64,000 nucleotides of DNA from Escherichia coli (GTDB lineage: Bacteria; Pseudomonadota; Gammaproteobacteria; Enterobacterales; Enterobacteriaceae), in assembly GCF_045037415.1 (NCBI RefSeq), contig NZ_CP173438.1; one strand, written 5' to 3'. The position numbers and the translations under genes are program-made. Positions within the stretch are counted from its first letter, which is position 1; each line of letters opens with the position of its first letter. Of this stretch, positions 45,140 to 45,623 are shown piece by piece. The notes beneath the pieces were generated by a model, which saw only the letters and a program-made list of their open reading frames with translations, ran no database searches and was not told the origin of the DNA.

Positions 45140-45623
45140 GGATATATCTCCTTATATAACGCAAATATATAATAATGATGAATATCGACTGTTGAGAGGG
45201 TGCTAATAAATTCGTTACGTGAATATAAATATTAATTCAATAAAGAGTGAGAATGTTTTTGTGTTTCTTTTAAATATGTTGTTATTCGGTGAAACAAATA
45301 TTTATGTTTAATGGATAGTAGGGGGGCAATATATCAATCACAATGTTCAATACTGTGTAGTGTGATCCCTGCAACATTGTTTTTTAATTATTAAATTTAA
45401 ATCTGGTGAGATAAAAGTAAAGTATTTAAATAATATCAAATAGTTATGTTGTGATGTATTCACTTACTTTAATTACAATATCGCTTGCATATGACGATTT
45501 AACATTAAATTGAGTATTAATGTTAAATAAAGGTTGGATATGTATGTGTTTATATATTGATGGGAATTATGAATGGTGGATTATAAGAGATTGCCCCGCT
45601 TATCGGGGCAATATTAAGCTGTA

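Follow-up and report, generated by a model that had tools for sequence, protein, structure and literature searches.

What is the role of the strongly AT-rich DNA that separates assT from ygiC in this Escherichia coli genome? In extraintestinal pathogenic E. coli, AssT and DsbL/DsbI make up an accessory periplasmic sulfotransferase system, which serves as a reporter for DsbA/DsbL inhibitors. Searches of the available literature found no data on assT regulation in E. coli. The results presented here indicate that the interval 45140-45623 (the gap) very likely controls the accessory assT-dsbL-dsbI operon in cis and holds the ygiC terminator at its far end. The window is the whole stretch of DNA that was analysed (64,000 nucleotides), and all coordinates refer to it unless another source is given.

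The gap comprises exactly the 484 bp of non-coding DNA between the assT ATG (45139, - strand) and the ygiC stop codon (45624-45626). The neighbouring genes tolC, ygiB, ygiC, assT, dsbL and dsbI all lie on the - strand, which the EC958 locus, 100% identical, confirms. No RefSeq annotation was present under the gap in 30/30 listed genomes carrying it. The GC content is 27.7% compared with 50.2% for the window, approximately 22 points below the surroundings, and among all 484-bp windows of the stretch lower values are found only at 39.5-40.0 kb. The first-pass annotation was therefore correct in describing about 480 bp of AT-rich non-coding DNA upstream of assT. The homopolymeric A/T tracts which it listed did not hold up: the gap contains 4 runs of at least 4 A or T, the longest being A6, while composition-matched shuffles contain 10.5 +/- 2.9. 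Instead, mixed TA/AT/TTAA steps make the gap AT-rich, and TpA accounts for 13.7% in the gap and 4.7% in the window.

In the window, homology to K-12 breaks off at the stop codon of ygiC, in agreement with the earlier placement of the gap at a boundary between accessory and core DNA. In K-12 just a 37-bp hairpin is found between the convergent ygiC and ygiD. Of 5426 complete E. coli genomes, 1508 (28%) carry the gap, as a single copy (median 1 place per genome); K-12 lacks it. Taken together, this distribution and the point where K-12 homology ends indicate that the whole gap travels with assT-dsbL-dsbI. At the opposite end of the cluster, the dsbI-ygiD gap (41926-41970) has a hairpin of its own, AACCCGAAGCCAG-N6-CTGGCTTCGGGT, unlike the single ygiC/ygiD hairpin of K-12, and so neither island junction keeps K-12 sequence. 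The features of the locus are collected in Table 1.

Table 1. Genes and predicted or conserved elements at the ygiC-assT locus (window coordinates).
Feature	Position	Strand	Basis or remark
ygiC-assT intergenic region	45140..45623	-	very likely assT-dsbL-dsbI regulatory region, plus ygiC 3' end signal
ygiC, core gene	45624..46784	-	3' end abuts the gap
ygiC terminator hairpin ATTGCCCCG-ATAAG-CGGGGCAAT	45590..45612	-	weak U-rich tail TCTCTTAT
Distal Escherichia-only block	45497..45528	-	ATTTAACATTAA at 45517-45528, invariant in six Escherichia alleles
CRP-like 22-mer CAATGTTGCAGGGATCACACTA (TGTTG-N6-TCACA)	45358..45379	-	centre about -60.5 from predicted P2 start
P2 -35 TTGTGA	45338..45343	-	4/6 consensus matches, 17-bp spacer; conservation and Salmonella alignment
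P2 -10 TACTAT	45315..45320	-	at -12..-7 of S. Typhimurium secondary TSS 3375044
Predicted P2 start	45308	-	169-nt leader; projected by alignment from Salmonella TSS 3375044 (-162)
P1 -10 GATATT	45181..45186	-	Salmonella counterpart TATATT, at -13..-8 of primary TSS 3375170
Predicted P1 start	45173	-	about 34-nt leader; position transferred from Salmonella primary TSS 3375170 (-36) through the alignment
Translation initiation region TATATAAGGAGATATATCCATG	45137..45158	-	Shine-Dalgarno AAGGAG at 45148-45153
assT (aryl-sulfate sulfotransferase, 598 aa)	43343..45139	-	first operon gene; RefSeq annotation of identical EC958 locus
dsbL	42657-43325	-	assT operon
dsbI	41971-42642	-	assT operon

For comparison, 23 Enterobacterales assT loci were gathered. 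The cluster is flanked by ygiC and ygiD in Escherichia and Pseudocitrobacter, and its neighbours in Citrobacter, Salmonella and Intestinirhabdus are zupT and ribB. Budviciaceae and Edwardsiella have assT at another site, beside a divergent LysR-type regulator. Compared with the locus as a whole, the 300 bp preceding assT have a raised AT content in all 23 cases. Conservation between genera is confined to two blocks (BLAST and MAFFT, 20 Enterobacterales loci). One lies approximately 170-240 bp upstream of the assT ATG and reads AACAATGTYG-N4-GATCACACT ... ATTGT ... CCTACTATC. The other is the last 75 bp or so before assT, including the translation initiation region.

These two blocks coincide with transcription start sites (TSSs) mapped in Salmonella. 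In S. Typhimurium SL1344, dRNA-seq placed a primary assT TSS at 3375170 (-36) and a secondary one at 3375044 (-162), and assigned the genes SL1344_3165-3167 to the assT operon (PMC3963941, Table S7). When aligned to the E. coli gap, both 51-nt Salmonella promoter sequences (-50..+1) fall on exactly these two blocks. An assT promoter within the gap, as proposed in the first-pass annotation, is thereby supported, and two promoters are to be expected rather than one. The Salmonella TSSs were detected at early but not at late stationary phase (PMC3963941), which points to condition-dependent promoter activity. The gene was absent from the supplements of Colgan 2016 and Ramachandran 2012.

The Salmonella operon is orthologous to that of E. 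coli (AssT is 86% identical to that of S. arizonae), its upstream region is likewise AT-rich, and the P1 and P2 blocks, the AACAATG...GATCACACT element and the translation initiation region are all conserved. The surroundings differ. In Salmonella the cluster lies between zupT/yqiD and ribB, the distal approximately 200 bp are unrelated to E. coli, and a divergent promoter region is common to assT and the yqiD orthologue, whereas in E. coli the ygiC terminator occupies the far side of the gap. The yqiD orthologue, assigned by position, is SL1344_3164A (3374630-3374877), which is divergent from assT and has its own primary TSS at 3374877 (PMC3963941). The site beside yqiD is occupied by assT in Salmonella and Citrobacter and by a fimbrial operon in this E. 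coli.

The distal of the two predicted promoters, P2, has sigma-70 hexamers with 8/12 consensus matches at regular spacing. Its -35 aligns with TTGTTC at -35..-30 of the promoter of the secondary Salmonella TSS, with the ATTGT core conserved, and the Salmonella sequence ends in ...CTCCTACTATCGACTCA, which puts TACTAT at -12..-7. Nearly every Enterobacterales assT locus, Budviciaceae and Edwardsiella included, retains the P2 core CCTACTATC. A promoter scan with a threshold of 9/12 consensus matches returned no - strand promoter in the gap. P1 and P2 were found only through conservation and the Salmonella TSSs, and P2, at 8/12, falls below the threshold and would be a weak promoter.

Upstream of P2 lies a CRP-like site. 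Both AACAATG and GATCACACT are invariant or nearly so in Escherichia, Pseudocitrobacter, Citrobacter, Salmonella and Intestinirhabdus. Compared with TGTGA-N6-TCACA, the site has 8/10 core matches, a level at which by estimate dozens of chance sites would occur per 64 kb. Its right half matches perfectly and does not vary between genera; the left half is kept as TGTYG and lacks the key G7 and A8. Class I CRP sites are centred near -61.5, -71.5, -82.5 or -92.5, the lac P1 site being at -61.5. Measured from the projected P2 start, the centre of the site here is at most 1 bp from -61.5. The gap resembles class I CRP promoters in its perfect right half GATCACA, its five-genus conserved TGTNN-N6-TCACA and its projected position, and departs from them in its degenerate left half-site (TGTTG or TGTCG). 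Since 8/10 core matches are not significant alone, the CRP assignment rests on five-genus conservation and position, from which we infer that the conserved site may bind CRP or a similar activator. We know of no cAMP-CRP dependence of assT. FNR, ArcA, IHF and TyrR boxes were also considered by eye for the conserved motifs and were rejected because of misfits in spacing or orientation.

The proximal promoter, P1, has a poor -35 (TTATTA), and both promoters are weak by consensus. The translation initiation region downstream of it is nearly invariant across 17 Enterobacteriaceae sequences. From the Salmonella alignment we infer that both P1 and P2 would fire in E. coli. In Escherichia sp. MOD1-EC7003 (L005:3940-3975) a 10-bp deletion removes the counterpart of the P1 -10 (GTCGATATTC), so P1 may be inactive or displaced there.

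At the other end of the gap a terminator hairpin for ygiC was found which the first-pass annotation had missed. It lies directly 3' of the stop codon and has a 9-bp stem that is conserved as structure: among E. coli alleles the stem is kept and the loop varies, and Escherichia sp. MOD1 and E. albertii show compensatory changes, with double changes at 4/9 pairs (8 sequences). The tail, TCTCTTAT or CTCTTATA, has 4-5 T in 8 and is below the threshold of the terminator scan, while the Pseudocitrobacter counterpart has a clear T-run. With so weak a U-tail, transcription of ygiC may in part continue into the assT region. Two + strand copies of the 10-mer GGGGCAATAT exist, at 45323-45332 in the P2 spacer and at 45605-45614 in the terminator stem, possibly by chance.

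Between the terminator and the CRP-like site lies the distal block found only in Escherichia. In this allele ATTTAACATTAA forms a perfect 12-nt inverted repeat with 45497-45508, separated by an 8-nt spacer. In other alleles the second arm varies without compensation, suggesting a sequence motif and candidate protein site instead of a conserved RNA hairpin.

Read in the direction of transcription (- strand), the proposed control region would begin with the ygiC terminator hairpin (45612-45590), followed by approximately 200 bp of Escherichia-specific AT-rich DNA with the invariant ATTTAACATTAA motif. Next would come a module of approximately 90 bp conserved in Enterobacteriaceae, consisting of the CRP-like site (45379-45358) and the sigma-70 promoter P2, and then an unstructured, poorly conserved leader. 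The proximal P1 (-10 GATATT, predicted start near 45173) and the highly conserved Shine-Dalgarno and start region of assT would complete it. The control region is real but ordinary, and its functional core is orthologous to a region already characterised in Salmonella. No finding on the gap challenges current understanding; it is a textbook example of the AT-rich control regions found at acquired operons. Such a reading accounts for the poor laboratory expression of the assT operon, and the positions of the predicted promoters and likely regulatory site provide coordinates for reporter fusions and mutagenesis.

Comparison of alleles points to constraint on the gap. When this allele is compared with that of strain SCPM-O-B-8794, identity is ~84-85% in the gap, 91% in assT as a whole and only 67% at assT 4-fold degenerate sites, which indicates purifying selection on the non-coding DNA. 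There are at least two deep classes of gap alleles in E. coli, one in 1246 genomes at >=95% identity and the other in 262 genomes at ~79%. The B2-type (this allele) and the ST38-type, both from E. coli, are 76% identical in the gap and 95% in assT, and the ST38-type and E. whittamii are 88% identical in the gap and 93% in assT. Each E. coli gap allele is closer to an allele of another Escherichia species than to its E. coli counterpart, whereas the flanking genes follow the species tree. This pattern suggests either exchange of regulatory DNA between lineages or an old dimorphism. Oren and colleagues reportedly described such horizontal regulatory switching in 2014 for E. coli promoters in general.

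Alternatively, most of the gap could be a functionless relic of horizontal insertion (the remains of a mobile element, or junk spacer), with just a minimal promoter beside assT. The cluster does occupy two chromosomal sites depending on the genus (ygiC/ygiD or zupT/ribB), the distal half of the gap is lineage-specific, and parts of it are only 52-58% identical between E. coli alleles. This explanation is nevertheless improbable, because the gap exceeds the neutral 4-fold sites in identity to SCPM-O-B-8794, the distal block carries motifs invariant across Escherichia species, and the conserved module with a mapped TSS is situated 170-240 bp upstream of the ATG and does not adjoin it. An origin from a mobile element or repeat was rejected: the gap is single-copy at a median of 1 place per genome, and neither notable repeats or internal repeat structure nor transposase or LTTR remnants were detected in it.

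The first-pass annotation had further allowed for a small RNA or peptide gene hidden in the gap, and this suggestion was not borne out. An independent small RNA gene, on either strand, is very unlikely, although the gap is long (484 bp) and unannotated. A sigma-70-like match on the + strand (45406-45434) could run into the bidirectional-looking hairpin at 45590-45612, but the stretch around it is the least conserved of all, at 52-68% identity from allele to allele. Folding of the distal 282 nt is stronger than that of shuffled sequences (z = -2.55), yet this is due to the one inverted repeat whose second arm is uncompensated in other alleles; for the P2 leader (z = 0.03) and the entire + strand (z = -0.96), folding does not exceed that of the shuffles. 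A permissive Rfam scan of 44900-45900 gave sub-threshold chance matches only, the best at 21 bits against a gathering score of 47, and the terminator scan of the gap found no second terminator. The other TSS in the Salmonella gap is only that of the yqiD orthologue, and yqiD is absent from the E. coli gap. Neither a promoter paired with a terminator, nor the conservation of a small RNA gene, nor a known family was thus found in the gap. A small protein or leader peptide is extremely unlikely. There are several ORFs of 20-42 codons, one of which (31 codons, 45377-45282, - strand) begins at the ATG within the invariant AACAATG, but 0 ORFs are intact across six Escherichia alleles. In several species the AACAATG ORF is cut short at codon 7 or 20; it starts with CTG in one, lacks a Shine-Dalgarno sequence and lies upstream of the P2 start mapped in Salmonella. 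Its third positions are the least variable (entropy 0.46, compared with 0.64 and 0.66 at positions 1 and 2). No conserved ORF and no coding-type substitutions were found, either within Escherichia or across genera. A cis-regulatory region of the assT operon remains the preferred reading.

How might this control region be regulated? The abstract of the primary paper on S. Typhi is said to describe an operon promoter that depends on LeuO, together with two further start sites of assT in minimal medium. A passage in a review describes negative regulation of S. Typhi assT-dsbL-dsbI by H-NS and positive regulation by LeuO, dependent on growth conditions (PMC4264507). Literature searches for 'arylsulfate sulfotransferase' with H-NS found nothing beyond that review. 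As AT-rich DNA present in just 28% of complete genomes, the gap has the features expected of a target of xenogeneic silencing. It resembles H-NS-silenced, LeuO-antagonised promoters (ompS1, the cas operon, bgl) in that it has a low GC content, is TpA-rich and fronts an accessory operon, and its assT orthologue in S. Typhi has published H-NS/LeuO control, as that passage states (PMC4264507).

It differs from these systems in that it shows no enrichment of the canonical H-NS motif and a depletion of A-tracts, and binding of H-NS and LeuO is putative here. The scan covered one motif only, the high-affinity nucleation consensus (TCGATAAATT-like) that Lang and colleagues reportedly defined in 2007, and found 1 site at <=2 mismatches in the gap, compared with 1.6 +/- 1.3 in shuffled sequences. 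H-NS also binds AT-rich DNA without the motif, and the missing enrichment therefore does not exclude binding. We know of no usable sequence definition of a LeuO site. Of the H-NS nucleation sites claimed in the first-pass annotation, plausibility by orthology and composition stands, and support from motif enrichment or A/T tracts does not. It is plausible that in E. coli the AT-rich gap is bound and silenced by H-NS and that LeuO relieves the silencing, but with motifs not enriched and A-tracts depleted this control is plausible by orthology and composition only.

The Budviciaceae and Edwardsiella loci (L016-L018, L020-L022, L052) show a different arrangement, with the divergent LysR-type regulator gene approximately 380-520 bp upstream of assT. 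LeuO is the second-best NCBIfam match of this regulator, below the curated cut-off, and the two are 27% identical (E. coli LeuO). LTTR boxes are of the type T-N11-A, and in these loci a palindromic one, TTATCTC-N5/6-GAGATAA, directly abuts the CCTACTATC core. E. coli has the same promoter core, but unlike these regulator/target units its gap has no regulator gene, remnant or LTTR box and instead carries the CRP-like module upstream of the -10. When the Budvicia, Edwardsiella and Leminorella regulators were searched by tblastn against the intergenic regions and the window, nothing significant was found, and a LysR regulator remnant was rejected.

Together with the allele pattern, the shared core raises a further reading of the gap as the orphaned target promoter of a LysR-type regulator, with gap DNA that has been exchanged or has become dimorphic independently of the genes it controls. 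Enterobacteriaceae may have lost the divergent regulator and replaced the upstream half of the promoter, and the global paralogue LeuO may now supply activation. This history is unlikely. If it were true, independent exchange of the gap could possibly lead to different assT expression in phylogroup B2 and ST38-type strains.

Finally, the most AT-rich stretch of the window (39411-39988, GC ~25%) is a 578-bp gap between the first gene of a fimbrial operon and yqiD (+ strand). The adjacent operon is of the chaperone-usher type, lies on the - strand and in EC958 encodes a subunit, usher, chaperone and pilus protein. This stretch is probably another silenced control region of an accessory operon.
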